The notes under the pieces were generated by a model. The model saw only the letters and a list, made by a program, of their open reading frames with translations. It was not told the origin of the DNA and did no database searches. Source: Raillietiella orientalis (taxonomy: Eukaryota). Taken from it: a stretch of 20,000 nt of DNA. This document shows, in pieces, positions 715-20,000 of the stretch; within the stretch, counting starts at the first letter, position 1; every line of letters begins with the position of its first letter. Location: NCBI GenBank assembly GCA_036172245.1, contig JAYWIR010000101.1:176382-196381 (forward strand), given 5' to 3'. The position numbers and the translations under genes were made by a program.

Positions 715-808
715 GCCAGTTGGTTGACGTGTTTTTCCTTCACTCCTCAAAGGCTAGTAGGAAAGCGCTTTCTTGTGTGTGGTGTTTAGTGTACATCGTC
801 GGTGTCCA
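715..808 (+). promoter_or_regulatory. 5' UTR of copy A, putative internal Pol II promoter
   Basis: Lies between the insertion junction and the ORF1 ATG (809). Starts gCCAGTT (Inr-like), followed by GACGTGTTT, a motif resembling internal promoters of other non-LTR elements. Promoter function is inferred only. Confidence 0.4.
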
Positions 809-2559
809 ATGGCCAAGACGCCAGAGGACACCGCGATGGAGGTGAGAGTGGGGGAGGCTAGTTCGCCTTCACAGCCTACTGGAGCAGGGGCAGCCGCCCC
901 GGAATTATCCCCGGCCACGCCGAGGACATGGAGCGCCATGGTGGCCGCGCCCAGCGCAGAAGCCATGGCGGAGATGGCCGCATACAAGGCCTCCGGGTAC
1001 AAGCCATCGCTTGTCTACCAGGTAGGAAACTTGTTCGACGGCCGGACAGCGCGCGCCTTCAGCAAAGCGTTGAAGGACGCGAATGTCACTGAGAAGGATC
1101 TGGACGGCCTCTCCGTCCTCAGCGGCGGGCAGCGGGTCGAGGTGGTCTGCAAAGATGTCACCTGGGCTCACCGCCTAATCCATGCGCCGCTGAACGTAGA
1201 CGGCCGAAAGATCCTGCCAGTATCAATGGATCGCTCCGTGGTGGTCCACATGACTGGCATCACCAGCCGCATGACGCGGTCAGCGGTTGGTGAGGAATTG
1301 CGGAAATACGGTGAGGTGCACGCACTGTGGCCGAAACCCTCCATTTTCGACGGTTTCGATAGCCTTTTTGGTGAGCAGGCTGCAGCGCGGTCACCGTACG
1401 GGAGAATTGTGGGCTTCCCCACAAACTACAGGTGGCGCAAGAAAACGTCGACCTGTGGTATGTAGGGAAGCCCCGGTATTGCGGGCATTGTGATACCGTG
1501 GGACACCTACGTAAAAGGTGTCCCAATATACAATGCCATTTGTGCGGGGAGCGGGGCCACGTTCGGCGCGTGTGTCCCAAACGCCCCACCCCGGTTCCCC
1601 CTGCCGCGAAAACAGCGCAGGGGAAACGTGCTTCAAAGGTCTCTAGATCTAAAGTAGAAAAGGGCCAGCACAAGCTGCCAACACCTCAACCTCCAGAGCG
1701 TAAGCCGGAGGATAAACCTTCTGAAACGGTGGAAGGCGAAGAGGGATGGCAGCTTGTAGAGGCCAGAAAGCCGAGGAAACTCCCACCCGCGGAGAGCAAA
1801 GAGCGCAAGACGGCCGGTAAGCCGAAGAAACCCGGTCCGCGCTCGAAAACTTTGCGCGAGTGCACGGTGGCACTGGAACGAATCGTCGTTCCCGAGATTG
1901 CCACCCGGAGCGTCGATCCTGCCCTTGCCGTTTCCGCTGCGCCCGAGGCTTGCGACGCCGAACCCTCTGTTTACACAGAGGGTGAGCCGCGCGACATAGC
2001 GGCGGTCGAAGCCGCGAACGGCGCGTTCGCGCAGGCGGCGGAGGAGCTCGCGGTCACGCTGGCCGAGCGTGAGAACCCGTCGCGCAAGGCCGTGCGAAGG
2101 CCGGCTCCGGCGAAGAAGGCCCCCAAAGGTGAGTTAGACCTGGGGGCCGGAAGCACATCCTCCTTCTCGGATGCACCCCCCAGGAAGTCGGGACGCAAGT
2201 CCCATAAGCCCAGGAGGCGCCTCCCCTCCACCAGCGAGGAGGAGAAGACGGAAGCCGTCGCCAGCGTGGGAAATTCGGAGGAGGAATTCCCACGCTCGGA
2301 AGCCGTCGATCCGGCCACCCCCATGAAGGAGGGTGAACAGGGGGCAGAAGTCCCATCTGCAGGCGCCGACCCTGAACAGCCCGCCCCCATGGAGGAGGGC
2401 GAGCAGGTAGGCGCGTCTCCACCTGCGGGTGATCCGGCCGACGCACCGGCACCGATGGAGGAGGGGGACCAGGTGCCTTCAGCACCTGACCCCCCTCCTA
2501 CACCTAGCGTCCCGCCCCAGCAGGTGGCGGACGCCGCACTGCCATCTTCCCAGGAGTAA
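809..2559 (+). pseudogene. ORF1 nucleic-acid-binding (gag-like) protein of copy A with two CCHC zinc knuckles and one frameshift
   Basis: ORFs 773..1465 and 1432..2559 join if one G is restored at ~1390 (AAR-VTVRE matches AARVIVRE of copy B). Knuckles CGHCDTVGHLRKRC and CHLCGERGHVRRVC at ~1480-1576, then a long low-complexity P/E/K-rich C-terminus. Confidence 0.9.
2320..2475 (+). repeat. Three 66-bp-period coding repeats (PM[K/E]EG[E/D]Q) in the ORF1 tail of A
   Basis: atg(a/g)aggaggg at 2323, 2389 and 2455. Confidence 0.8.
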
Positions 2560-5500
2560 CACCTGGGCTCGCCAGTCGCCGTCGGATTCGCGCGGCCTGT
2601 TGGAATGTCAACGGGCTGCGCGACGACGGTAACAGGCGAGATACAGCCGACACCCTGCGGGAGTTCGACCTGGCCCTGTTGTAGGAGATCCACGTGATCA
2701 CCGCGGCAGACGTCCAGGAGATCGAGACGATCGCGGGGGGTCGGCTGTACTGGCAATGCGGCATCCGGAACACCTGCGGGGTCGCGTTCTTCGTGAAGCC
2801 GGCCGTCGACGCTGACGTGAAGGGCGTGCGCTTCGATGAAGACGGTCGGGTCGGTCAGCTGACTCTCGGGTGGTCCGACTCGATCGATCTGATCGTCACG
2901 AATGTGTACGCCCCAACCGGTCAAAAGGGATACAGCAACCGTGCCAGGCTGCTTGAATCCCTGAAGCGCGACTGGCTGGCGAACACGAGCGTGCGGAAGG
3001 CTAACCTGATAGTGGGAGATTTCAATCTCCGCCTGCTAACAGGGGAGCCGGAAACACAGGTGAACGCGATGAACGAGTTGTGCGCCGCCATGCGTGCGCG
3101 CAACTTCTTCGCGGGTGAGAGGGGAATGGTCCGCAGCATCGACCACGTCTTCCGCGACGGTGACCTGTGTTCACGGGTAGGCAAACGGGGGAGGGATGCG
3201 TCAACGTTCTCGGACCATTACCGGTTAATTTTCGAGATGCCGCCTCGCGACCGAAGACCGCCATCCAGGGACTGGCGTCTGCTGGGGGACTGGACGCGAC
3301 TCTCAGGTGCGAAGGAACACCTTCGCGAATACCTGAGAGGTGTCACGCTCCGGAATCTCCAAGACTGGGACCTTTTTAAGGAATCGGTCCGGGAATTCTG
3401 CGAGCAGTTCCCCCTGGACCGCCTGCCCTCCGGATTTGGCGAGGGTCCTCGCAACCATCGGGCCTATTTACAGGCCCGAAGGTACGAGCGAACCCCTAAT
3501 GTCCGTCGCCTGACCGAGTACCGCGCCGGGGCCGAACGCCAAGCCTGGCAATCCGGGTCGGCCAGCTTGCTGGACGACCAGGGCCGGGAATGTTCGTCCC
3601 CGGCGTCGGTACGGCATCTCGTGCGGAGTTATTATTCCTCCCTTTACGCCAGGGCGACCCCGGATCAAGATGCCTCTCGGCTCTTGCTTCCGGATGGTGC
3701 CCCGGCAATAGGGGAGGAGGAGTCGTTAAGCCTCGATGAGCCTTTAACCACCGGCGAAGTTCTCGCCGGTATCAAAAGGCTCAAGAGGCGGAAAGCTCCA
3801 GGGGAAGACGGCTTGCCCGCGGAGTTCTATCAGAGCTTCGCGGAAGAGCTGGCACCCCTGCTGCTTCAGCTGACAAAGCTGATCCGAGACGAAGGCGATG
3901 TTCCCGCCTCGTTTCGGTCAGCCAGAGGGAGGCTCCTTCCGAAAGGGGGAGACCTTAGGAATTTGAACAACTGGCGTCCGATCACGATTGTGAATAGGGA
4001 CGCCAAGTTGGTAGCCGGGCTATGGGCTTCGCGTCTGGAGCAGGTGGCAGAATCCAATATTAGCCCGGAGCAGACATATGCTGTTACCGGGCGAAGTATG
4101 GATCCCAACCTCTTCTTCGCGAGCACGTGGATGCACGCGCAGAGGTGTCAAAAGGAAGGGAAAGAAAAAATCGACAACCCCACTTTGGTGCAGCCAGCAG
4201 GGCAGGGAATGGATTCCCGGGCGGGGAAGGGGGCCTTAGCGCTCGCGGTCGATCTCCATAAGGCGTTCGACTGTGTTGACCAGGGGCTTTTTTTTGAGCT
4301 CCTGGGTCGCATGGGCTTCCCACCCTCCTTGATCAACTACCTGCGCTCCTGCTGACGCCATGCGATAATTTCCGTCTCTTTCAGCAGTCAGAAGGTGCAT
4401 GGCGTGCCGGTGCGGCGGGGCAACAGGCAGGGAGATAGCCTGAGTCCCCTGCTCTTCAGCACCTACTTTGAGTTGGTGCTGAGAGCCTACAGGGTGACTT
4501 TGGCCTCCTTGCCGAGCTCGTGTCCCGGCACGCCCGCCTTAGCAGCCTATGCCGACGATCTTCTGCTCCTGTTACCTATGTCCACCCCGGCGAAGGCGGT
4601 CGGAGACTTCTTCGATCTGCTCAGCCGTGGGACCGGACTGCAGGTCAACAGGGCGAAGTCGTCGGTGGTGCCAGTAGGTGCGGCGTGGGCAGGGCAGCAG
4701 GACTGGGTCCGTCTGGGGATTTTTACGGCGAGGTGCCTCGAGTACCTTGGTGTGCCGTTGGGTGACTACTCCCCTGCGGAAGCGTGGTCCAGCTGTCTTC
4801 AAAAAGTTGAGACGGCGATCGGCCCGTTCCTGGAAGGCAAGTTTCACTTGCCGGAACGGGCCGCGGTTTGGAACGCCTTCGCGGCCCCCATCCTCCGCCC
4901 CTTGCTTTTTGTTTGCCCCGCCCCCAGAGAATGCCAAAAGAGGACGAAGGACCTCCTCCGCATCGCCCTTTGGGGCAAGGGGAGGCCCCGAGTCCCTCTG
5001 CAGGACTTGTGCGCTCCGCGTCGGGACGGCGGCCTTGGCCTCCTGACGCTGGAGCGGGTGGAAATCCAGCTGCGGTGGCGAACCCTCGCCATCGCAGCGA
5101 AGATGTGGAGCACCCCTTGGTGCGTTCCGGCCCGCCACCTCGCCAGGCGTGTGTCCCGATGCGAAGGACTCGCGTCGTTTCTTCTGTGCGCTGGCCGGAA
5201 GATCCGAAGATGCGGCCTTATGATCGGACGCATAGCAACCTTGGCGAAAACGAACGGTTGGATGGTTTGTGGCCCCGCCAACTCCTCCGCCTGGTTGGAG
5301 GAGTCTGCTGGCACATGGGCTAAGCTGAACCGGAGGAGTAAAAACAATATGAACTTCCTGTGGATCGGCCCATACGCCAACCGCACCCTGCGGGAAATAC
5401 TGGAATTTCAATGGAGTCGCAGGTGGGCATTCATGACCCCCTTTGCTACGGCGATGCCCTACCTGTTGAGGGCGCTTCAGGATCGCCAGAAGCCGAGGTG

Positions 5501-6155
5501 GCAAGTCACCTGCCAGATCGCAGGCAGGGAGAAGATGTTAAGCGGCTGGACCACAGGAGAACTGGCGGACGCCACGACCCCGAGCGTCCAGCCGCGTAAA
5601 CTAATGAGATGGGGCGAGCTGCACGCCATCCCTACGGATGTGCTGAAGTGGCCCCCTGTATTAAAGGAATCCAGGATCCTGCCCCTTAAGTGGCAAGAGT
5701 CGGCGTTGCTTTTGTTGCACTGGGGTCTACCCTGCAACGCGCGCCGCTTCCACTGGACAAGTGGAGCTGTGGATCCTGCGTGTGCCAGGTGCGGGGAGCG
5801 GGAGTCGCTTCCCCACCTTATTGTGGATTGTGCTGCCATCCGACCCCTCTGGGAACGGTTCGGGGCGACCCTAGGGCTCCCTACGGACAGCACCCCTAGA
5901 GACGTTCTTCGGCCCCTCTTCGTGAAGGACGCACTGCAGCCAGACGCAGTCATCGCAGCCTTGTGCTGTGTCCGTGGCATCGTGGCGGCATGGAGCGACG
6001 CCAATAACGAAGGAGTGGGTCCACACGCGAGGGATGTCATCCTATACGCCCAACGCTTTATGCGGAGAGCTGCCTGATGGCCCCAACTGGGGAATATACG
6101 GACGGACCTCGAGGGCTTCCTTCAGCGGATGGGCCCTCCTCACAGCGTTTAGTGA
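2559..6155 (+). pseudogene. ORF2 of copy A: APE endonuclease + reverse transcriptase + C-terminal zinc finger, ~1200 codons in a single frame with premature stops
   Basis: EN motifs WNVNG, L*EIH, NVYAP, GDFN, IDH, SDH. RT motifs KAPGEDG, NWRPIT, DLHKAFD, RQGDSLSP, YADD, YLG. Zinc finger CARCGERESLPHLIVDC. Stops at 2682, 4353, 6075 and 6150. The terminal TGA at 6153-6155 is homologous to the stops of B, D and G (tgatccct). Confidence 0.95.
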
Positions 6156-6362
6156 TCCCTTCCCTGCCCTCCAACTTCTTTTTGTCTGTTTATTTTTTAT
6201 TTTTCTTTTTGTTTTATCCCTATCCCCATTCGCTGCTGAGGAACGCTGCGCTGGGCTGCGTCCCGGCGTCCTGGCAGGTCCAGTGTATATGGCCGTGAGC
6301 GGGGCCTTGTACCGCGGATGTAGGGTTTTAACAATAAACGCCCCGTGCGTACCCGGGTGTAA
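6156..6362 (+). other. 3' UTR of copy A: T-rich tract, conserved GC-rich block, AATAAA (6333-6338) and terminal CCGGGTG (6353-6359); no poly(A)
   Basis: Clearly homologous to the reverse complement of 11941-12161 (D) and 18134-18335 (G). Confidence 0.85.
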
Positions 6363-6363
6363 A

Positions 6364-9300
6364 CCTCCAAGTCTGGCAAAAAGGCAGTGAGGCGCCAGGC
6401 CTCCACCGAGGAGTCGGTAACCTCCGACCCCAAAGCGCAGACCGGAAACCAAGTTTACCTCTTCGCGGCACCCCTCCGGAAGGCTGGAAGGAATTCCAGC
6501 AAACCCCGGAAAGCCCCTCTCTAGGTCGAAGGCGTTGAGATGACTTCCGACTGCGAGGGTGCGGTGAGCGTGGGAGAATTCCGGGAATCGTCACTCGAGA
6601 GACCACCACGCACAGACACGGAGGAGATGGAGGGGGTTGAAGCTGGAAAGGTACCCAAGGTGCCTGAGGAGGCTGAAACCCTAATGGTCATCTCACTTGC
6701 CTCGGAAGAGGCGGGTTCCCCCACACCGTCATCTTCCCGGCAGTAATGCCGGGAATCTCCTCCCGCCGTCGTCTGCGCATCGCCGTTTGGAACGTAAACG
6801 GCATGACAGACGCCGGCAGGAGACGAGACATGGCCGCCCTTCTGGAGTTCCACGACGTTGTGCTGCTGCATGAGATCCATGTGATCTCTGCAGAACAAGC
6901 GCAGGAGATCGAACGCATCTACGGAGGGCGGCTGTGGTATCGGTGTGGAACATCGAGAAGTTGTGGTGTCGCCTACCTGCTTCGGCCAGCCATCGATGCC
7001 GCCGCTTGTGGAGTGCGGTTCGACGATCACGGTCGTGTCGGCCAGATCACTCTCAGTGGGTCCGACTCGATCGACCTGATCGTTACAAACGTTCACGCCC
7101 CGAGCGGAGCGGACCTGACGAAAATGAGAGCCAGAAAAGAATTTTTCCTTGCCCTACATCGCGACTGGTTGACCAAGGCAGGCGTGCGGAATGCCCATCT
7201 GGTGGCAGACGATTTTAACGATCGTCTGAAACTGGATAGGCCGAATCACGAGCGTGTCCTGGTCAACGAGGTGTGCGCGGCGGTGCACACTTGTAATTTG
7301 TTGGCCAGTGTCCCAGGGATGGAGGACAACATCGATCACGTTTTCTTTGACGAGCATCTGTGCACTCGTGTGGGCAGGCGGTGCAAGTTGCCGTGTGAGT
7401 TGTCCGACCATCGACCAATCGTGATTGAAATCCATTCGCGCCACAGGGGCTTCCCCTCGTCAGCGTGGCGTTTGCGAGGGGACCGGTTGAAGTCCCCGGA
7501 AGCGACGGAAGATCTCCGCACGTTTATACGGAGCTTTATGATGCAGACACTCTAGGATTGGGACCGCTTCAAATGGTCGGTCCAGGAGTTCTTCGACCAG
7601 TTCCCTCGGCACTGCCTTCCTTCGGGATTTGAGGACCGGGTACGTAACGGAGGAGCCTATCTGCAGGCTCGCCGTTACGCCAGGACCCCCGACATCCGCA
7701 GGCTGGCGGAATACAAAGCGGGAGCCGAGTGCCAAGCCTGGAAGTCAGGATCGGCCAGCTTGCTGGACGATCAGGGCGAGGAGCATTCGGCACCCGCTCA
7801 AATCTGCGGTCTGCTGCGGCGTTCTTTCTCCTCTCTGTACGCAAGAACGCCTCCCGAGCGGGATTTCTCACGAATCCTGCTTCCGGAAGGCGCTCCTGCG
7901 ATCGGGAAAGAGGAGGAAAAGTCCCTCGACGAATCTCTTACGATGGGCGAGATCATCTCGGCCATCGGAAAGCTCAAGAGGCGAAAGGCTCCAGGGGAGG
8001 ACGGCCTGTCCGCGGAGTTTTATCAAACTTTCGCGGCTGAGCTAACCCCCCTGGTACATCAACTCACCCTGCTAATACGCGAGACAGGTGACGTTCCCGC
8101 CTCGTTTCGTTCGGCAAAGGTGCGGCTTCTCCCTAAGGGAGGAGATCTGAGGAGCATGAACAACTGGCGTCCCATCACAATAGTGAATGCGGACGCCAAG
8201 TTGCTAGCCAAGCTGTGGGCAGAGCGCCTGTGACGGGTTGCATACGCCTCCATCAGCCCGGAACAGACGTATGCTATTCCGGGGCGAAGCATGGAGGCGA
8301 ACCTGTTCCACGCTTCCACCTGGCTAAAGCGCCAACACGAAAGGGGCTTGATGCGCACCGGAAATTCCGTTGAGCCCGTCAATCGTGCGACGGATGGTCG
8401 GAAGGTTGAGGGAGCACTTGCGGTCGCTGTCGACTTGCGGAAAGCATTTGACAGCGTCGACCAGAATCTCCTGCTGGCGCTTTTGAAACGCTTGAGTTCC
8501 CGGCCTCATTATTGGTTTATCTGCGCTCCAGCTGGCGCGATTCGCAAATCAATGTAACCTTCCGCGGGCATACTTTTCACGGCGTGCCGGTGTGACGTGG
8601 GTTCCGGCAAGGAGACAGCTTGAGCCCCATGCTCTTCAGTACCTACTTTGAGTTGGTACTGAGAGCGTACAGGGGAACTCTGGCGCACCTGCCGCATGAA
8701 TGCGCCGGAACGCCTGCGGTTTCAGCATATGCGGACGACAACCTGCTACTGCTTCCTATGTCCACCCGGGCTTCGGCGGTCGAGAAGTTCTTCGACCTGC
8801 TGAATCGAGGAACCGGGCTTACGGTGAACAGGGCGAAGTCGTCCGTGATGCCAGTTGGTGCGGCGTGGGCAGGGCAGCAGGACTGTATCCTTTTGTGGAT
8901 CCCCACGGTGAGGTACTTCAAGTACCTAGGTGTGCCGTTGGGGGACTACTCCCCTGCCGAAGCGTGGTCCGGCTGCCTTCAAAAAGTAGAGACGGCTATC
9001 GGCCCGTTCCGAGGCGGCAGGTTTTTCCTGCCTGAACGGGCCGCGGTTTGGAACATGTTCGCGGCTCCTCTACTCCGTTCAATGCTTTTTGTTTGCATCC
9101 CCACAGAGAGGATCCAAAAGCGGACGAAGGACCTCCTCCGTATCGATCTTTGGGACAATGGGAGGGCCCGAGTCTGCTTGAGGGACTTGTGCGCTCGGCG
9201 TCGGGACGGTGATCTCGGCCTCCTGACATTGGAGCGGCTGCAGCTGCAGCTCCAGTTCCGGATTTTGGCACTTGTGCCGGAGTTGTGGTGCACCTGTTGG

Positions 9301-10543
9301 TGCGTCCCTGAACGTCTTCTCGTTCAGCAAGCCACCGGCAAGGCGGGGCTTACGTCGTTTCTTGCACTCCATCGAAGCCGCATCAACTGCTGTGGGCTTC
9401 AGCTACGGAGGGTGGCTGCGCTGGCAAGGAAAAATCAAGGATGGATCACCTGTTTCCCCACGAACGGTAGTGCCTGGTTGCAGGAAACCTTTCGCACGTG
9501 GGGACAGTTCGGTATGCAACCCTCCCATCAAGAACGTAGGTTCCTGTTTGGGTGTTACAGAAGTTGCACGCTCAGTGAGATCATGGAGGATCCTAAGAAG
9601 AGAGCGTGGTCAGGAAGATCAACCTCGCTGCTGCGCTAGACTTCCTAGTGAAACATCAGGACAGCGATGTTGCGGCGAAGTGGGAGGTTACAATAAAAAT
9701 CTCAGGGAAGGAGAAGAAGCAGAGAGAGTGGAAGACGGGCCAGCTAACTGATGCTGCGTCCCTGAGTACGCCTCCTAATGGACTTGTGCGCTGGGGAGCG
9801 CTGCTGGATTTTCCGATTGAACATCTGAAGTGGCCCCCGATTCTTATGAACACTTCCATCCTCCCCATAAAATGGCAAGAGTCAGCATTCCTGTTGCAGC
9901 ACTGGGGACTCCCCTGCAACACCCGTCGAAACCACTGGACCTGGGGAGCGGTGGATCCCAATTGTGTAAGGTGCGGGGAACGGGAGTCCCTCCCCCACCT
10001 CCTAGTGGATTGTGTTGCCCTTCGGCCCCTTTGTTTCCGCTTTGCCGCGGCTATCGGTATCCTTTGCGGCAACCCAGGGACGCACTAAAAGCTTTCTTCG
10101 TTGCCGACGCCCTGCGTCCAGCGTCCTCGATAGCAGCCTTGTGCTGCCTTCGTGGGATCGTCGCCGCCTGAAGAACGGCGACGAGAGGAGCTGGGGATCA
10201 GGACGCCATCCAGTGCGCCTCCCAATTCCTGTGGAGGGCGTCGCGATGGCCCCACCTTGATGTTCATAACGAACAAGAGCTTGCCAGCATCCTGAGAGGG
10301 ATGATGCGGTCTCAGCAGCATCAGTGATCCCTTCCTGTTCCCTTCCACCCATTGTTTCTTTTTGTTTAGTTTTTTTGTTTTTCTAGTTTCCCCTGCTGCC
10401 TTGGTGGACCGTACCGGTCTAGAAACCGGTGAATTGGCAGGCTCCGTGGTTTTCAGCTTCTGGCTGGAGCATTGTCACAGCCATTAATAATTTCTTTATA
10501 AAGTTTCTTTTTAAAAAAACCACCTGGAGAAATCCGGGTGAAA
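6364..10543 (+). mobile_element. Copy B, right part: ORF1 C-terminus, degenerate ORF2 and 3' UTR
   Basis: ORF1 tail ends at TAA 6744-6746. The 3' end is taaaaaaac-cacctgg-agaaat-ccgggtg (10512-10540). Confidence 0.9.
6746..10327 (+). pseudogene. ORF2 (EN-RT-zinc finger) of copy B with multiple stops and frameshifts
   Basis: WNVNG, LHEIH, DDFN (for GDFN), SDH, KAPGEDG, DLRKAFD, YADD and CVRCGERESLPHLLVDC, spread over ORFs 6746..7555, 7760..8233, 8291..8557, 8620..9639, 9606..10088 and 9830..10171. Confidence 0.93.
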
Positions 10544-10668
10544 ATCGAAAGCTTTACGCAAATCGACTGCAACCGCAAGGGCTCCAGGCGCCGCATCTTC
10601 GTCCCGGCTTCCCTCCCCCCTGTCAATATAGAGTTCAGGACTTTCCCGACGTAGCTGCGCCTCGCGTT
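10544..10668 (-). mobile_element. Copy H: short minus-strand RT fragment, cut by the 3' end of copy B
   Basis: The minus strand encodes ...APGALAVAVDLRKAFD and stops at the B terminus. The right boundary is approximate. Confidence 0.8.
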
Positions 10669-10669
10669 T

Positions 10670-11938
10670 CTGCAACAGCCAGCCTAAGGCTGCAAAGAAG
10701 GCCGTCAGACGTCCGGCGGAAGTTAAAGGCCCGGAAACTTGCGGATCCGAGGCGGAAGCCGGAAACCCTCCCACCGTCGCCCTCCCGAAGAGGAAGGCGG
10801 GCCGGAAGTCGCGCAACTCTATGCGTGTCGCTCTCCATCTGGCTTAGGAGGAGGAGATGCGCTCGGATGGTGAGGAGGCGATGTCCGCGAGTGTCGCGGG
10901 ATCCCTCCATCGACAGCATCCGGTCGGTCCTTCCTATCGACCTCTGTCCGGCTGCAGACGTTCCGGTCGTTGCTGGAACGCCACCAGCGCAGATGTACAA
11001 CGACCAGCCGCCTCCCGAACAGGAGGCGGCATTACACACGCCACCACCATCATTAGTATGATGCGTGGAATCGCCTTTTGCCAGCAGCGGCATATGGCCT
11101 GTTGGAATGTCAACGGGCTGCGTAGCGAATGCAAGAGGTGTAGCGTGGCGGACACCCTGCGACCTTTCGACCTGGCACTTCTCCAAGAGGTGCATGCCCT
11201 CAGAGCAGAGGACGTCCAGGAAATCGAGTGGCTCACAGGAAGGAGGATAGTTTGGCGTGGTAAAGGAGATCACTCCCGCGGAGTGGCCTTCCAGCTGAAG
11301 CCGGCCGTTGCCAATAAGGTGCGCAGTGCACGATTCGACGAGGAAGGTCGACCTTGTCCTCAAGTGGTCCGAATCGATCGACCTCGTAGTCACGAACCTG
11401 TACGCGCCCTGCACCAGCCACAGGCGCGCAGAAGGCATTGCGTTCTCACGAAGCCCTGCGGCGAGACTGGCTGGTCGAAGCAGGCGTGCGGCGTGCGCAT
11501 CTGATAGCGGGAGACTTCAACGTCCGCTTGCTGTCGGAAGCGCCCGACATACGAGCACAATTGGTCAACGAATTGTGTGCAGCTATGCACACACGCAACT
11601 TGTTGGCCGATGAAGCCGCGAGGAGAAGCATAATGGACCACGTGTTCCTCGATAACCACTTGCGTACGCGGGTGGGGACTCGAAAAGCAATTGCGTCAGA
11701 GCTGTCCGATCACCCTCGGCTAGTGATCAACATTCATCCGCTCGACAGAGGTCCACCCTCCGAAGCGTGGCGCCTGCCGGGGGACTGGTTGCGGCTCGAA
11801 AGAGCGCGCGAACTTCTGCGCGCATTCCTGCGTAGTTGCCAATTGCAGACTCTTGCTGACTGGGAAAAAATAAAACGCTCAGTCCAAGAGTTCGGTGACC
11901 AGTTTCACCTCCATCAACTTCCTCCAGGTTTCAGCGAT
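10670..11938 (+). mobile_element. Copy C fragment: ORF1 C-terminus (stop 11059-11061) and degenerate EN domain, cut by copy D
   Basis: KKAVRR in ORF1; TGATG stop-start; ACWNVNG, LQEVH, NLYAP, GDFN, MDHVF, SDH. Ends at LPPGFSD. Confidence 0.88.
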
Positions 11939-13264
11939 GCCACCCGGATACGTTGGGACGTTTATTAAAAACATTTCGACAGTTAATACAGAACGTGGTA
12001 CAAGGCCCCACTGACGGCCACGCAATACCGGAACTGCCGGGACACCGGGACGCAGCCCGGGGATGCTCTGCTCGGCAGTGGAAGGGGATGGGGGAGAAAA
12101 CAAAAATAAAGTAAAAGAAAAAAACAAACCGCAAAAAAAAGTTTGGAGGGCCGGGAAGGGATCACAGAAAACTGCTGGGAGCGCCCATCCTATGCAGGAT
12201 GCCTTCTAGTTCCATTTTCGGTTTTCCTAGATGGGGCAATCGGGTAGCTCTCTGCAGGAAGCGAGAAGCATACTCGATGACGTCCATCACGATGCAGTCT
12301 CCATATTCGACATCACACCAGCCCGCCACGTTACCACGAATGCAGCAAAGTGCTGCCAGGGCTGCGGCTGGACTGAGGGCGTCCCGCACGAAGACAAGAC
12401 TAAAGGCACATCCAACATTGCTACCATTTGGTATCCGGAAGGCCGTTTTAAGACGATCCCAAAGAATCTGGACGGCAGAGCATTCAACTGAGAGGTGGAG
12501 GAGCGACTCTTGCTCCTCACACCTGGCACACGCAGGATTTACTCTTCTCCGCCTCCAGTGGAAGCGGCGCGCGATGCAGGGTAGACCCAAATGCAGACAC
12601 AGAAGCGCCGATTCTTGCCACTTCAGGGGAAGAATCCTGGATCCAAGTAGAACCGGGGGCCACTTCAGGTCATCCAATCGAATTCCGAGCAGCTCGCTTC
12701 ATCTTTTTGATCCACGCGGCTGGAGACTAGGGGTCGTTGCATCTGTCAACTCTCCCATGGTCCAGCCGCTCATCATCTTCTTTCTGCCTGCGATACGGCA
12801 GCAGACTTGCCACCTTGCCTTCCGGCTTTCGTGAAGCGCCCTTTGAAGGAAGGGCATCGCCGTAACAAGGGGTGTGCCTTCCGCCCACGTGCAACTCGGT
12901 GGAAATTCAAGAATTTTACGGAGAGTTCGGCGGGCGTAAAAGACGACTCGCAGGCAGTTCCCACGGTCTTCGCACCTCTGGTTCTGCTTGGCCCAGGTGC
13001 CAGCACTCTCTTCCAGCCAAGCGGAGGAGTTGGCAGGGCCAAAAACCATCCAGTCGTTCTCCTTTGCCAGGGTTGCCATGCGTCTGAGCAGTAGACCGCA
13101 TCTTCGAATCTTCCGGCCAGGGCACATTAGAAACGATGCGAGTCCTTCGCAGCGGGACACACGCCTGGCCAGGACGCGGGCCGGAATGCACCTAGCGGTG
13201 CTCCACATCTTCGCTGCGATGGCGAGGGTCCGCCATCGCTGCTGGATTTCCACGCGCTCCCAGC
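11939..13264 (-). mobile_element. Copy D: 3' part (post-RT region, zinc finger, 3' UTR)
   Basis: ERVEIQ..WRTLAIAAKMWS and CARCEEQESLLHLSVEC; ORF2 stop at 12162-12164; AATAAA (11961-11966, minus) and CCGGGTG (11941-11947). Confidence 0.92.
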
Positions 13265-13882
13265 AAATGGCGGTCGAGAAAACTCCCGACGACGCTGGCA
13301 ACAAGGAGGACTGGCGGACAGGAAGCAAAAAAGAGAAAAAATTCGAAAATCCGAAGAACCGACTGCGGAACCCGCGACCACTTCTCTAAATAGAAGGCAA
13401 CGCCGCGCTTTGCTCCGCGAATGTTCGGTCTCTTTGAAGCGAGTGGAGATCCCCGAGACCTTCACAGGGGGAGATATCTCCCGCCTCGTTGACTTTGAAG
13501 CCGCGATGGAGGAAGGCTAACCCTCTGTGCAAACAGAGGGGGAGCCGATCGACGCGCTCGCGCAATCGAGGACGCCGTCTTCCAGCAGGCGGCGGAAGAG
13601 CTCGCGGCGGAACTCAAGGAGCGTGAAAACGGCGCGCAAAAGGCCTTGCGAAGGCCGGCCGCGAGCATGGCACCTCAGAAAGGTGACCACGAACCGGATG
13701 CCGGAAGTGCGTCCTCCTCCGCGGAGGCGCCTCCGAAGAAGACTGGACGGAATTCCAAGAATCCCAAGAGGCGCATCCCGACAAAGAAGGAGGGGGACGC
13801 ACCGTCATCCGAGGGGGAAGCCGGCAGCGTGAGAACGGAGGGAGGGATTTTCCAGCCCTCCGCTACCGAGCAACTGGAGACC

Positions 13883-14118
13883 ACCATAGAGGAGGGGGAT
13901 AAGGTGAGTGATCGCGGCCCCCTTCCAACGGTGGAACCTGTCCAGGAGATAGCCATGGAGGAGGGGGAGCAGACAGCTGACAACCGCTCTCCTCTGCCGT
14001 CCAACGCAGCCGACGAATCGTCTCCCATGGAAGAGGGGGACCAGGTGCGTGAAACCCGCCCCCTTCAACCGTTGCGGTCCGCCGAGGAATCGGCCCCCAT
14101 TGAGGAGGGAGAACCGGT
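13883..14118 (+). repeat. Four 69-72-bp-period coding repeats ([M/I]EEG[E/D]) in the ORF1 tail of E
   Basis: Units start at ~13886, 13955, 14027 and 14099. Confidence 0.8.
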
Positions 14119-14374
14119 GCGCGGTGATCCCGTTCTTCCATCCGTCCCGCCCGATCAGGTAGCGGGCGCCCCATTGCCCCTATTCCAGGAGTAACACCTG
14201 GGCTCGCCTGTCGCCGTCGATTACGCGTGGCCTGCTGGAACGTGAACGGGCTGTGCGACGACGGCAACAGACGGGACACGGCCGCCACCCTGCGTGACTT
14301 CGACCTGGCACTCCTGCAGGAGATCCACGTGATCACCGCGGAGAACGCCCAGGAGATCGAAAGGATCGCAGGAA

Positions 14375-14384
14375 GACGGTTGAT
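14375..14384 (+). repeat. Target-site duplication of copy F, left copy (gacggttgat)
   Basis: Identical 10-mer at 17428-17437. Removing F restores the E EN sequence IAGRRLM*QCGTRYTCGVAL, homologous to IAGGRLYWQCGIRNTCGVAF of A. Confidence 0.9.
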
Positions 14385-17300
14385 TGTCACCCGGATGTGC
14401 CGGGGAGTTTATTGTAAACTATCAGGGAACAGGGTTCCCGGACAAAGAAAAAAACAAGAGACGAAGGGGGTGGGATCTCCGACACGCAGGTCGGTGTGCC
14501 GAAAGTCCGGAACGGGAGGGAAGGGACCACAAACACACTACTATATAAAAAAATAAAAGAAAAATATGGAGGGCAGTGGACAGGTGTCTTTGGTAAATCC
14601 GTTCCTTCCTTTCAAAACCGGCGATGGATGCCGGCGATCTATCTCCTTACGCCCTGTGGCAGATGGGCCCACTGGGCAGCCGACGACATGTTTGCGCTGG
14701 CTAATCCGGTGGGCTGACGAAGGATGGCCAGCTTCTCCAACTCTTGGTGGGCCTTTTCGATGGCGCGGATGCAACACACGGTTGCAACGACAGCACCCAA
14801 TGACAGACCGCCTGGCGTGAAGAAGCGGCGCATCAACTCCCTCGCGGTGTCCCCCTGGTGCAGGAGAGCTGAGGCCAGCCTCCGCCAGAGTCCTAGAAGG
14901 GCACCGCAGTCCAGGAGCAGGTGCGGGAGCGTTTCCACTTCCCCGCACCGCTTACAGTTTGGGGAGGGGACTCCCCCGGAAACAAGGTTCGTGCGCTGGT
15001 TGGAGTGAAAACCCCAATGCACCAGCATAATCACATCCTGCTTCCACGAAAGGGGGAACACAGAAGTGTTCAGACACGAGGGAGGAACCACAAGTTCTTC
15101 AAGGGGCACACTCAAGTGTTCGCTCCACCGAAGGAGTCCCTTCGGAACGTGGCGAGGTGTGGCGGCGTCCGCCAGCTCGCAAGTCTTCCAGCCGCCAATA
15201 GGTCGCGTTGTTTCTGCGATGGTGCAGGCGACCTCCCATCTCGCCGGTTCGCAACTGTCATCTCTTGCCCTGAGGGCTGACAGTGCGTCTTCGAGGGGGG
15301 TGACGGCCAGGCGGGTCCACTTCTCCTGGCTGTTGCACACCTCATCCACCGTGCAGTACGGGGAGAGGTGAGCGCAACGGAGTTCCAGGAGGGAAACATC
15401 CTGGTGCTTTGCCCAGCCATGCAACGGTTCCTGACGCCAGGCTTGAAAGTTCGTTGGGCGGCAGGAGATCCATTCATGGGCTTCCAGGAGCCGATACAGC
15501 GGTTTCAAGGGGAAACCGAAGCTTCTCGTGGCGCGCTCCGTGTGCGGCCGCAGCGACAGAAGTCCATCGCTGCCTGTGCAGCGCCGCAGAAGCAGGCGCG
15601 CGGGAGCGCACCACGGAGTGGATCAAAGGTTGGCGCACAGGGCCAACATCCGAAGCTGCACCTGCAGCTCGATTCTCTCCAGCGTCAGGATGCCTAAGCC
15701 AGCATCCCGACGCGGAGCCGCCAAGTCTTTGAGGCGGATCCTGGACCTCGCTGGTCCCCACAGAGCGTTCCTCAACAGGCTGTGCGCCTGGAGCTTGGCC
15801 GAGTAGGGGGGCGGGCAAACAAAAAGCAGGATGCGCAAGAGAGGGGCAACGAAGGTGTTCCATATCGTGGCCCGCTCCGGCAGGAAGAACCTGCCATGGT
15901 GGAACGGGCTCAGGGCATTCGAAGCCTTCCGAAGGCAGTCCGACCACACTTTCATTGGGCTGATGTTCCCCAGCGGAACGCCCAGATATTGCACGGAGGA
16001 AGCGGTCGGGATCCCCAGGCGGATGCAGTCGGACTGTCCCTCCCACGCCGCACCAATAGGTACGACCACGCTCTTGCTCCGGTTTACGCTCATGCCCGCT
16101 CCCCGGCGAATCAGCTCGAAGAAATCCTCGAGACTGGATGCCGGGGTGGTCATGGGTAAGATGAGGAGCAGGTCGTCAGCATAGGCCGCCACGGACGGCG
16201 TTCCTGGACAAGAGCTCGGCAGGTTGGCCAGCGTCAGCCTGTACGCCCTTAGCGCCAACTCAAAGAAGATGCTGAAGAGCAACGGGCTTAAGCTGTCGCC
16301 CTGCCTGATGCCCCGCCGCACCGGCACGCCGTACACGTGGCAGCCGCTAAAAGAGATGGAAATGAGCGCGTGGCGCCAGCAAGCGCGCATATACGCCACG
16401 AGGTGCACCGGGAGACCGAGGCGTTCCAGGAGCTCCAGCAGGAGATCCTGATTTACGCAATCGAACGCCTTGCGGAGATCGACCGCGACCGCCAAGGCAC
16501 CCGGCGCTTCCCCAGGCCGAATGCAGCGACGCTTAGCCTCGGCAGCCGCAGACGCGGTTGCCTGGCTGTCGTGCGCCACGCAGCGTTGCAGCTCGAGCCA
16601 CGTGCGCGCGAAGAACAGGTTCGCCTCCATGGACCGCCCGGGAACAGCGTAAGACTGTTCCGGACTTACCACGGATCCAGCGATCCTGCCCAGGCGCGCG
16701 ACCCACAGCCTGGAGAACAACTTGACGTCCGCATTCACCAAGGTGATGGGACGCCAGTTGCTTAAATGGCGCATGTCTCCGCCTTTCGGCAACAGACGCA
16801 CCCTTGCTGAGCGAAACGAGGCCGGGACATTGCCCGTCTCTCGCATCAGCGCAGAAAGCCTCAGCACCAGGGGGATGAGTTCCGCCGCGAAGCACTGGAA
16901 GAACTCCGCAGGCAGACCATCCTCACCTGGCGCCTTGCGCTTCTTGAGGCTCGCTATGGCGGAAGACACTTCTTCCGCCGTGAAGGGCAAGTCAAGAGTG
17001 GCGCGTTCCTCCTCGTCGACCGCCGGGCAATCCGCCGGCAGAAGCAGCTCCGAGAAACTGCGTTCCGTCGGCTCCCTAGCGTACAACAAGGAGTAATAGC
17101 GCTTTAGGAGGCGGCGAACTTCGGCCGCGCCCGAGCACTCCAGGCCCTGGTCGTCGAGCAGACAAGCTGCTCCTGACTGCCAGACCTGGCGCTCGGCCTT
17201 GGCCTTGTACTCCGCAAGGTACTGGACGTCCAGGCATCGAAAGAATTGGCGGGCCTGCAGAAACTCTCTGCTGTTGGCCACGCCTTCCCCGAAGCCACGG

Positions 17301-17427
17301 CGAAGCAGGCGCAAGAGGAACCGGCTGCAGAACTCGCGGACCGATCTTTTCAGATCGTCCCAGTCCACGAGCTGTCGAATGGCAAAGGTCCGGAGATGCT
17401 GGCGGAGGTGCTCCAGCCTCCAGGGGG
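14385..17427 (-). mobile_element. Copy F: 5'-truncated (~3.04 kb) divergent element with an uninterrupted RT domain, inserted into the EN of E
   Basis: KAPGEDG, NWRPITL, DLRKAFD, GIRQGDSLSP, YADD and YLG in ORF 15623..17569; frameshift near 15620; CKRCGEVETLPHLLLDC in 14639..15508; AATAAA at 14408-14413 and CCGGGTG at 14388-14394; TSD present. Confidence 0.95.
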
Positions 17428-17437
17428 GACGGTTGAT
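17428..17437 (+). repeat. Target-site duplication of copy F, right copy (gacggttgat)
   Basis: Matches 14375-14384. Confidence 0.9.
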
Positions 17438-18130
17438 GTAGCAATGCGGCACCCGATACACCTGCGGCGTCGCGTTGTTTATGAAGCCGGCAGTCGACGC
17501 AGCCGTGAAGGGCGTGCGCATCAACGAAGCCGGTCGTGTCGGCCAGCTGCTACCCAGGTGCTCCGACACGATCGCCCTCGTCGTAACAAATGTGTACGCT
17601 CCGAGCGGTCCTACCAGTTACCAGGAACGTAAGGCGTTCCTAGAAACCCTGAAGCGCGACTGGCTGGTGGAAGCAAACGTGCGCGTGGCTCACCTGATAG
17701 CGGGAAACTTTAATCTCCGCCTGCTATCAGGTGAGCCACACGCTACAGAACGGACGGCTAACGAGTTGTGCGCCGCCATTCGCACGCACAACTTGTTAGG
17801 GGATCTTTCGGAAATGGCCAGCAGCATCGACCACGTCTTCCTGGATGTCGACCTGTGTTCACGGGTCGGCAAACGGGGAAAAGTTGCGTCTGAGCTGCCT
17901 GACCATTTCTGGTTGATATTCGAGGTGTGCCCGCGCGACAAGTGCCCCCCATCCAGGGCATGGCGTCTGCCTGGGGAATGGACGCGACTCTCAGGTGCGA
18001 AGGAACACCTTCGCAAATTCCTGAGAGGCGTCACCCTCCGCAATCTCGTTGATTGGGACCTTTTTAAGGCCTCGGACCGCGAGTTTTGCGAGGAGTTCCC
18101 CTTGCACCTCCTGCCCCAAATATTTGGGGT
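17428..18130 (+). mobile_element. Copy E, right part: remainder of EN, cut by copy G
   Basis: NVYAP, GNFN (catalytic D lost), IDHVF, PDH, and WTRLSGAKEHLR (identical to A). Ends at LPQIFG. Confidence 0.9.
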
Positions 18131-20000
18131 TATCACCCGGGTACGCTCGGGGCGTTTATTAATGAACTCTACATGCGTGGTACAAGGCCCCACCACGGCC
18201 GTAAACACATGACCTGCCGGGACACCGGGACGCAGCTCGGCGTGGCACTTCCCGACAGCGAATGGGGATGGGGATAATACAAAAAGAAAAAATAAAAATA
18301 AACAAACAGAAAGAAGTTGGAGGGCGGGGAAGGGATCACTGGTCGCTGTGGGGAGGGCATATCCGTCGAACGAAGCCCTCGGGGTCAGTCTTCATATTCC
18401 CCAGTTGGGGCCATCCGGCAGCTCTTCGCAAGAAGCGTTGGGCATATGGGATGACATCCCTCACCTGTGGACCCACTCCTTCGTTTTTGGCGTCGCTCCA
18501 TGCCGCCACGATGCCACGGACGCAGCACAAGGCTGCAATGGCTGCGGCTGGCTGCAGTGCGTCCTTCAAGAAGAGGGGCCGAAGAACGTCTCTGAGGGTG
18601 CTGCCTGTAGGAAGCCCGAGGGGGGTCCCGAACCGTTCCCAAAGGGGTCGGAGGGCAGCACAATCCACAATAAGGTGGGGGAGCGACTCCCTCTCCCCGC
18701 ACCTGGCACACGCAGGATCCACAGCTCCCCTTGTACAGTGAAGGCGGCGCGCGTTGCAGGGTAGACCCCAGTGCAACAAAAGCAACGCCGACTCTTGCCA
18801 CTTGAGAGGCAGGATCCTGGACTCCTTCATCACCGGGGGCCACTTCAGCTCATCCCTGGGGATGGCGATCAGCTCGCCCCATCTTAATAATCCTCTCGGC
18901 TCGACGCTCGGGGTCGTGGCATCGAACAGTTCTCCTCTTGTCCAGCCACTAATCAACTTTACGCGTCCCTCGATGAAGCAGGAGACTTGCCACCTTGGCA
19001 TCCGGCTGCTGTGAAGTGCCCTCCTCAGGAAGGACAGCGCCGTAGCTAAGCAGTTCGTCTCTGCCCACGTGCATCTTGCTGGACTCTCCAGGAGATTCCG
19101 CAGCGTGCAGCGGGCGTAGGGGCTGCATCGGAGACGATTACACGTCTCGTGGCTTCTCTGGTGAACCACTGCCTACGTTCCAATATTCTCCTCCAGCCAG
19201 GCGGGGGAGTTGGCGGGGCAGCAAACCATCCAGCTGTTCTCCTTGGCCAATGTTGCCACGCGCCTGAGCAGTAGGCCGCATCTTCGCATCTTCCGGCCAC
19301 GGCTCAGAAGAAAAGACGGAAGTCCATCGCACCGGCACACACAGCTGGCCAGAAGGCGGGCCGGAGTGCACCAAGGGGTGCTCCACATCTTCGCTGCGAT
19401 GGCGAGGGTTCGCCACCGCAGCTGCTTCTCCACGCGCTCCAGAGTCAGGAGGCCAAGACCGCTGTCCCGACTTGGAGCGCACAAGTCGTTCAGGTGCTGA
19501 AGAGCAGGGGGCTGAGGCTATCTCCCTGCCTTATGCCCCGCCGTACCGGCACGCTATGCACCTTGTAAACTCTGAAAGAGACGGCGATCATCGCATTCCG
19601 CCAGCAAGTGCGCAGGTAGGAAATAAGGGAGGGTGGAAAGCCCATGCGACCCAGGAGCTCCAAGAGGAGTTCCTGGTCTACACATTCGAAAGCTTTGTGG
19701 AGATCGACTGCAAGCGCTAGGGCCCCTTTCCCCGCCCCGGGGGTCCCTTTCCAGCCCGGTTGGCTGCTTTAATGTGGGGTTGTCGACGTTCCTTATCCCT
19801 TTCTTCTCTCTTCTCTGCAGGTGCGCCCATGTGCTTGCGAAGAAGTGGTTGGCATCTCTACTTCGCCCGGGAACAGCATAAGTCTGCTCCGGGCTAATTA
19901 CGGATTCTGCTACCTGCCCCAGACGCGAAGCCCATAGCCCTGCTATCAACTTGGCGTCCGTATTAACGATCGTGATCGAACGCAATTTCTTTAAATCCCT
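18131..20000 (-). mobile_element. Copy G: A-like element (3' UTR, zinc finger, partial RT with an internal deletion), runs off the window
   Basis: CCGGGTG at 18134-18140, AATAAA at 18155-18160, ORF2 stop at 18336, CARCGERESLPHLIVDC, DLHKAFE and RQGDSLSP. The YADD region is missing. Confidence 0.93.

Follow-up and report, generated by a model that had tools for sequence, protein, structure and literature searches.

In a stretch of 20,000 nucleotides from Raillietiella orientalis (assembly GCA_036172245.1, contig JAYWIR010000101.1, positions 176,382 to 196,381; the whole stretch is called the window hereafter), two copies of a long interspersed nuclear element (LINE), named C and E, are each interrupted by an antisense insert, D and G, respectively, at the same homologous position of the linker between the endonuclease (EN) and the reverse transcriptase (RT) domains in open reading frame 2 (ORF2). 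D and G are probably two independent target-primed insertions of LINEs similar to copy A at a preferred site in the ORF2s of sibling elements. The near-full-length copy A (720-6359), whose own linker is uninterrupted, was the ruler for mapping with BLAST and MAFFT, by which the whole of the mapped 20 kb was found to be LINE sequence, forming a nest with at least four nested junctions.

The two junctions in the EN-RT linker

The host sequence of C ends with CTT CCT CCA GGT TTC AGC GAT GC and that of E with CTG CCC CAA ATA TTT GGG GTT AT, and each is directly followed by CACCCGG. The initial annotation had read these sequences correctly; its positions 11941 and 18134 are the first bases of D and G, and the last host bases are 11940 and 18133. 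The homologous segment that it had pointed to in uninterrupted A, at about 3423-3446, is indeed the homologue, with the exact position 3422-3445: it reads CTG CCC TCC GGA TTT GGC GAG GG followed by T, and the equivalent of the break lies between 3445 and 3446. When C and E are aligned codon by codon with A, B and F, their breaks both lie 8 nt past the conserved TTY (Phe) codon of the motif LPxGFxx, after the second base of a codon. Thus the inserted terminus starts at the same codon position in C and E, as had been proposed, with the same distance from the Phe codon and the same phase, an identity that presumes the absence of insertions and deletions.

The CACCCGG at both junctions is the reverse complement of the terminus CCGGGTG, which is common to the five visible 3' ends in the window, and D and G can be aligned with the last ~1.3 kb of A up to the very terminus. 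The tails of D and G are therefore complete and face the host, as expected for target-primed insertion on the host sense strand. The last 4 nt before the junctions are ATGC in C and TTAT in E, which are possibly short additions and not host sequence. Since A also has 4 extra nt (TAAA) between its tail and its target site duplication (TSD), the claim that the same nucleotide was used in C and E is good only to about +/-4 nt.

The last 23 nt of E match A at 13/23 positions, compared with 78% over the last 300 nt. In this part, where E is unusually unlike A, lies a perfect palindrome of 16 nt, CCCCAAATATTTGGGG (18114-18129), which ends 4 nt before the E/G junction; the window contains no other perfect 8+8 palindrome, and the simulated mean is 0.36 per window. 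It could have arisen when a quasi-palindrome underwent templated correction, be a mark left by the insertion, or be due to chance. The palindrome was also considered as a recognised feature and dropped; the site in C is not palindromic.

Independence of the two events

The C/D and E/G junctions are independent events. In the EN region, the identities among the host copies are 77.5% for A and E, 61.9% for C and E, and 60.5% for A and C, which bears out the earlier remark that E is closer to uninterrupted A than to C. The maximum-likelihood tree of the hosts separates (A,E) from (B,C) with an ultrafast bootstrap of 100, and a topology uniting C and E is rejected in the approximately unbiased (AU) test (p=0.012, difference in log-likelihood 10.8). 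Because uninterrupted A groups with E, the interruption of E is younger than the split between the lineages of C and E, and thus the two junctions represent independent events at one homologous site.

The inserts are less informative. Their identities in the 3' region are 82.3% for A and G, 73.5% for A and D, and 71.2% for D and G, and the Kimura two-parameter (K2P) distances among A, D and G are 0.20–0.37, compared with 0.64–0.90 to B and F. In the insert tree (A,G) is the best grouping, followed by (A,D) with an AU value of 0.47 and (D,G) with 0.083, and the three resolutions are not separable. So the proposal that G is closer to A than to D stands by identity. Hence the case for independence rests on the hosts.

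Segmental duplication of one old composite, consisting of a host with its antisense insert, followed by divergence, would account for the identical architecture of the two junctions, and a clade of D and G is not rejected by the insert tree alone. However, this explanation, against which the initial annotation had already argued, is refuted by the host phylogeny, where C+E is rejected and A, with an empty linker, groups with E at full bootstrap support. The depths are also unequal, as the K2P distance is 0.54 between C and E and 0.37 between D and G (0.27 between E and A, 0.20 between G and A). Moreover, the flanks are unlike: E carries the F insertion and has ORF1 upstream, and C comes after the tail of B. 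Clades C+E and D+G of equal depth and excluding A, which had been named in advance as the pattern of duplication, were looked for and are not found for the hosts. We give duplication almost no credence, and it would revive only if the EN of E were a later gene conversion from an A-like copy.

Element type and layout of the nest

The features of the window are as follows, with identities given to A.

1-719, + strand: element B, 5' part, with ORF1 containing putative CCHC knuckles; its beginning lies outside the window, and A interrupts it; 59-192 matches ORF1 of A
720-6359, + strand: element A, near full length, in sense orientation inside ORF1 of B; tail end CCGGGTG at 6359
3422-3445, + strand: linker site of element A in the EN-RT linker, uninterrupted
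6360-10540, + strand: element B, remainder, with the tail end at 10540; linker site 7614-7637 uninterrupted
10541-11940, + strand: host copy C, end of ORF1 and endonuclease domain; 63.9% over 758 nt
11941-13260, - strand: insert D, A-like, comprising the 3' 1.3 kb (corresponding to A 5051-6359), the complete tail adjoining C; 74.1% over 1278 nt
13258-14387, + strand: host copy E, part 1, 5'-truncated ORF1 and start of EN; boundary read from the sequence, about +/-10 nt
14388-17427, - strand: insert F, of another lineage, 5'-truncated, with a 13-bp TSD; RVT_1 78.8 bits
17428-18133, + strand: host copy E, part 2, rest of EN; 77.5% over 699 nt
18134-20000, - strand: insert G, A-like, with a complete tail at the junction, running off the window end; 82.5% over 1362 nt and 81.9% over 509 nt

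The window contains at least four lineages. A, D, E and G form one group (K2P 0.20–0.37), and B, C and F are each about 50–60% identical to all other copies. The idea of a hotspot within the element's own ORF2 is therefore correct for the A-like host E and does not apply to host C, which is a separate lineage about 60% identical to all.

Judged by their sequence features, the elements are L1-like LINEs with a reverse transcriptase, a probable apurinic/apyrimidinic (AP)-type endonuclease and a putative zinc knuckle. In the Pfam search, RVT_1 was detected with 78.8 bits in F (cut-off 29.6) and 34.3 bits in the second half of A. Exo_endo_phos was found with an E-value of 3.4e-5 and 24.2 bits, just under the cut-off of 24.5, and the copy of this domain in A begins after an in-frame stop. 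The match to zf-RVT is weak (17–19 bits, cut-off 27.5), with a C-x2-C ... H motif visible in the translation, and zf-CCHC in ORF1 reached 20.0 bits (cut-off 20.8). The best solved relative of A is human LINE-1 ORF2p (E-value 7.6e-33), where residues 294-469 of the translation of 2685-4352 in A correspond to residues 392-569 of ORF2p; the L1 endonuclease chains match A weakly (E-value about 0.005). In addition, a protein search with the 664-amino-acid ORF of F gave 6 matches at E-value <=1e-10, one of which is close (63% identity, a JGI protein); further copies from the R. orientalis genome are evidently absent from the protein collection used.

The five visible 3' ends (A at 6359, B at 10540, D, F and G) all consist of AATAAAC (AAAAAAC in B), 12–13 nt, and CCGGGTG, and poly(A) is present at none of them. 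Each of the five tails is complete, and 5' truncation affects D, E and F. The 3' untranslated regions (6262-6359, and on the - strand 11941-12052, 14388-14480 and 18134-18232) have in common a T-rich tract, a hairpin-like block GGGGCCTTGTACC and AATAAAC, and pairing would be possible between the terminal CCGGG and a CCCGG located about 100 nt upstream of it. With RNAalifold, 19 pairs were predicted for these regions, 2 of them with double changes, and the covariation term was +0.88, which is no real evidence for a structure. The tail pattern of A and G gave 0 matches in public metagenome contigs, and a degenerate tail pattern gave 0 matches in public genome contigs. Among metagenome contigs, 100 pattern matches to the C-terminal half of the A ORF2 were obtained, of which 0 were confirmed as relatives by tblastn.

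Two neighbouring insertions in the nest can be followed on both sides. F lies antisense in the EN domain of E between TSDs of 13 bp (GACGGTTGATTGT at 14375-14387 and GACGGTTGATGT at 17428-17439), and the host E continues on both sides of it. Its 3' end is about 50% identical to that of A, and its truncation point is near the end of its own EN. The position of F may be a second, lineage-specific landing site. A lies in sense orientation in ORF1 of B between imperfect repeats of about 13–14 nt (706-719 and 6360-6376), the left copy CCATCCAAGGCCAG ending at 719 and the right copy CCTCCAAGTCTGG following the 4 extra nt TAAA. In one related contig of a public run, 716 is connected directly with 6379 and A is absent, which is a weak case (likeness threshold 80, side 67).

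Contigs of sequencing run X1, which contains 0.21 of the sampled words, were compared with the whole window at a likeness of 80, giving 754 records, 27 of them at 99% or more. Among the loose ends and joints listed (6 of 509 and 15 of 30, respectively), none bears on 3445, 11940 or 18133, so the hotspot is neither supported nor weakened by this run. The best explanation for a joint between 14338 and 17387, on opposite strands, is that a full-length F-like element was cross-mapped.

Several other details of the nest were observed. D and E meet head to head at about 13258-13262, where D stops at about A 5051, in the C-terminal region of the RT, and E starts, 5'-truncated in ORF1, at the equivalent of about A 1757; the 3' junction of E is beyond the window. 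E was probably inserted antisense into D, and the order of nesting is then probably C, D, E, and finally F and G. The tail of B adjoins C within ORF1 of C at 10540/10541, about 150 nt upstream of the position homologous to the site of A in B. It may be that B, with A inside, is a sense insertion into ORF1 of C, the 5' part of C then being located before the window start. At 19492/19493, within the RT domain, G has an internal deletion of 533 bp, which corresponds to A 4465-4997. A is the least decayed copy, yet it has two in-frame stops in ORF2 (2682-2684 and 4353-4355) and a frame change in ORF1 at about 1375-1465; no intact copy is present in the window.

Choice of the site, known systems and wider meaning

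In the process that we propose for D and G, the AP-type endonuclease of the element would nick the sense strand of the host at the LPxGFxx linker site, and the free 3'-OH would prime the synthesis of complementary DNA (cDNA) from the RNA end ...CCGGGUG. With the cDNA primed on the nicked sense strand of the host, the insert would come to lie antisense to the host, and a second nick about 13 nt upstream would yield the TSD. We infer the position of the nick to +/-4 nt. As is the case for Tx1L and R1Bm, the site is most likely recognised by a protein of the element, either the endonuclease or an adjacent domain. LPxGFxx is constrained at the protein level in all five lineages of the window and would therefore offer a landing site that persists. 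The linker sites are occupied in two of five copies (C and E), both by antisense A-like inserts, and two of the three visible A-like 3' junctions are located there. The primer end in C is ...CAGCGATGC, and the site is not simply AT-rich, so the TTTT/A preference of the L1 type fails to explain it. Downstream of the linker site, A, B and F share AAC and a ...CAGGC(C/T)CG stretch.

Several points weigh against two independent insertions at a preferred site. The window provides no more than two events, and three of its five linker sites, those of A, B and F, are unoccupied. The far flanks are beyond view, as D is cut by E at about 13260 and G runs past 20000, so that a TSD and a continuation of the host are unseen for D and G; by analogy with F and A, both would be expected on the far sides. 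As said above, the insert tree taken by itself leaves a D+G clade unrejected. Immediately upstream of the junctions, only 8/20 positions are the same in C and E, and with such poor conservation the recognised sequence would lie mainly downstream, which is unseen in C and E, or be loose. Furthermore, A, the closest relative of G, sits elsewhere, in sense orientation in ORF1 of B, and this site matches a weight matrix built from the five linker sites of the window weakly (ranks 55, 359, 319 and 142 of about 40,000 positions). The ORF1 site as a clear look-alike of the linker site was dropped on these ranks.

The same two junctions could be explained without a preferred site. A one-step chimera, in which host and insert arrive together and the host does not continue beyond the insert, would arise if the 3' end of an RNA folded back, or switched template, onto the linker in a sense LINE RNA and were extended there, or if the 3' part of a single element were inverted. 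The far sides of D and G are beyond view, so its prediction of no continuation and no TSD stands; there is no overlap between C and D or between E and G that would allow a direct comparison, and a single lineage could account for E and G, which are 77.5% and 82% identical to A, respectively. However, the identity to A is about 60% for C in EN and 73.5% for D in the 3' region, and since B, as a yardstick, is similarly distant in both (60.0% in EN, 57.2% in the 3' region), C and D belong to different lineages. In addition, if the RNA folded back on a B-like linker, the final 3 nt of the tail would have no pairing partner, and the same nest contains insertions with TSDs and host sequence on both sides, namely F and A. 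We regard such a chimera as very unlikely. Even less probable is a coincidence of two non-specific LINE insertions at one position, for which the small number of events and the alignment freedom of +/-4 nt leave some room. For the 5 visible 3' junctions in the window (10 pairs) and an element of about 5.6 kb, a rough estimate, not computed by a tool, gives p of about 1e-3 for a match of exact position and strand, and about 1e-2 with the +/-4 nt tolerance. Moreover, the two inserts are on the same strand and of the same lineage, and the site is not an AT-rich patch.

Another possibility keeps the insertions at a preferred site and concerns the way in which the position is set, namely by RNA-DNA homology rather than by protein recognition. 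A read-through transcript carrying the antisense linker, from a source copy residing in a linker, or a tail resembling the site, would pair with the nicked linker; the insertion would then hit the homologous base even if the host had diverged, with a few of the apparent host bases near the junction copied from the RNA. The last 23 nt of E, including the only 8+8 palindrome of the window, would fit this, being unusually unlike A, but other windows in the last 300 nt also score 12–13, so this divergence is not unique. The tail-side TSD copy of A (CCTCCAAGTCTGG, after the 4 extra nt) differs from CCATCCAAGGCCAG, which also speaks for it, but there is no direct sign of a transduced flank. A run of 9 nt in the empty linker of B (CCGGGTACG, 7636-7644) also occurs in the reverse-complemented A/G tail; in the window scan, however, the tile at the B linker scores 19, which is tied with two unrelated loci and below another at 23, and it is absent from the top 12 for the tails of G or D, so that the resemblance between tail and target across the window is not above background. 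We therefore consider guidance by RNA unlikely, and recognition by protein remains our preferred account of the site choice.

As described in the available parts of PMC4494074, LINEs of the Tx1 clade insert at preferred positions in other transposons: Tx1 in the piggyBac element Tx1D, the crocodilian Tx1-Mar in Mariner-N4_AMi, Tx1-9_AMi in Harbinger, and Tx1-8_Crp and Tx1-4_AMi in long terminal repeat (LTR) retrotransposons. According to the same parts, Tx1-Mar uses two sites in one Mariner target, in opposite orientations and with no recognisable similarity (PMC4494074). To that extent the elements studied here are alike, as L1-type elements with a probable AP-type endonuclease and preferred positions inside transposons, and the antisense linker site and sense ORF1 site of the A-like lineage resemble the two sites of Tx1-Mar. 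The main difference from what is described there is that the target here is the coding sequence of sibling LINEs, their own lineage group included.

For R1Bm and R2, pairing of read-through RNA with the target has been proposed. Both insert by target priming with base-exact precision into a conserved multicopy sequence, the 28S ribosomal DNA, and in this they resemble D and G. Their target is, however, a host rRNA gene and not a retrotransposon, R2 uses a restriction-like endonuclease, and tail-to-target pairing here is not supported above chance, with the 9-nt match at the linker of B only. The accessible part of PMC1919474 states that the endonuclease domain of R1Bm itself confers target specificity.

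Human LINE-1 uses poly(A) and a loose TTTT/AA nick site. In common with it, the elements here have TSDs of about 13 bp and 5' truncation, and its ORF2p is the closest solved structure by sequence. They differ in the fixed CCGGGTG end and in the recurrent use of one site that is not AT-rich. The consensus of the L1 nick is stated in the part of PMC8565326 that was available.

Zepp, known from Chlorella and Coccomyxa, has a poly(A) tail, unlike the elements in the window. According to the available text of PMC8226300, Zepp clusters arise by nested insertion into existing copies. As far as described there, the nest in R. orientalis is like those of Zepp and of ZeppL (L1 clusters in Chlamydomonas), in that it consists of element copies only and has grown by insertion into existing copies. 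The difference is that the Zepp and ZeppL arrays are mostly made of 3' ends, and neither a base-exact coding site nor an antisense rule is described in this text (PMC8226300). In the parts of the literature covered, no LINE with a base-exact target in the coding sequence of sibling LINEs was found.

A broader proposal, which we put forward tentatively and with some doubt, is that the A-like lineage might be a dedicated 'LINE-homing' LINE, landing on the sense strand at the LPxGFxx linker codons of the ORF2s of siblings and of its own family, and always antisense. It might do so within a guild in which each lineage hits a different indispensable coding motif of the others, maybe with read-through RNA bearing the former target as a partial guide. 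In the window, this guild might be exemplified by F, in the EN domain, and by A, in ORF1, both flanked by a TSD of about 13 bp. Known targets of target-specific LINEs are rRNA, snRNA and tRNA genes, microsatellites, telomeres, DNA transposons and LTR elements. If the proposal is true, base-exact landing in the coding sequence of an element's own relatives would be a distinct strategy, to which the window contributes two phylogenetically independent events at the same site. Such a target would be multicopy, harmless to the host and kept constant by selection on the protein of the target element, and each landing would kill a competitor. It would also offer a natural AP-endonuclease with a defined target that is not AT-rich for studies of specificity. 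Furthermore, mutual targeting would build self-contained, GC-rich repeat islands, sparing host genes and disabling competitors, and it could explain the growth of LINE-only islands, such as the Zepp-type clusters, some of which mark centromeres.

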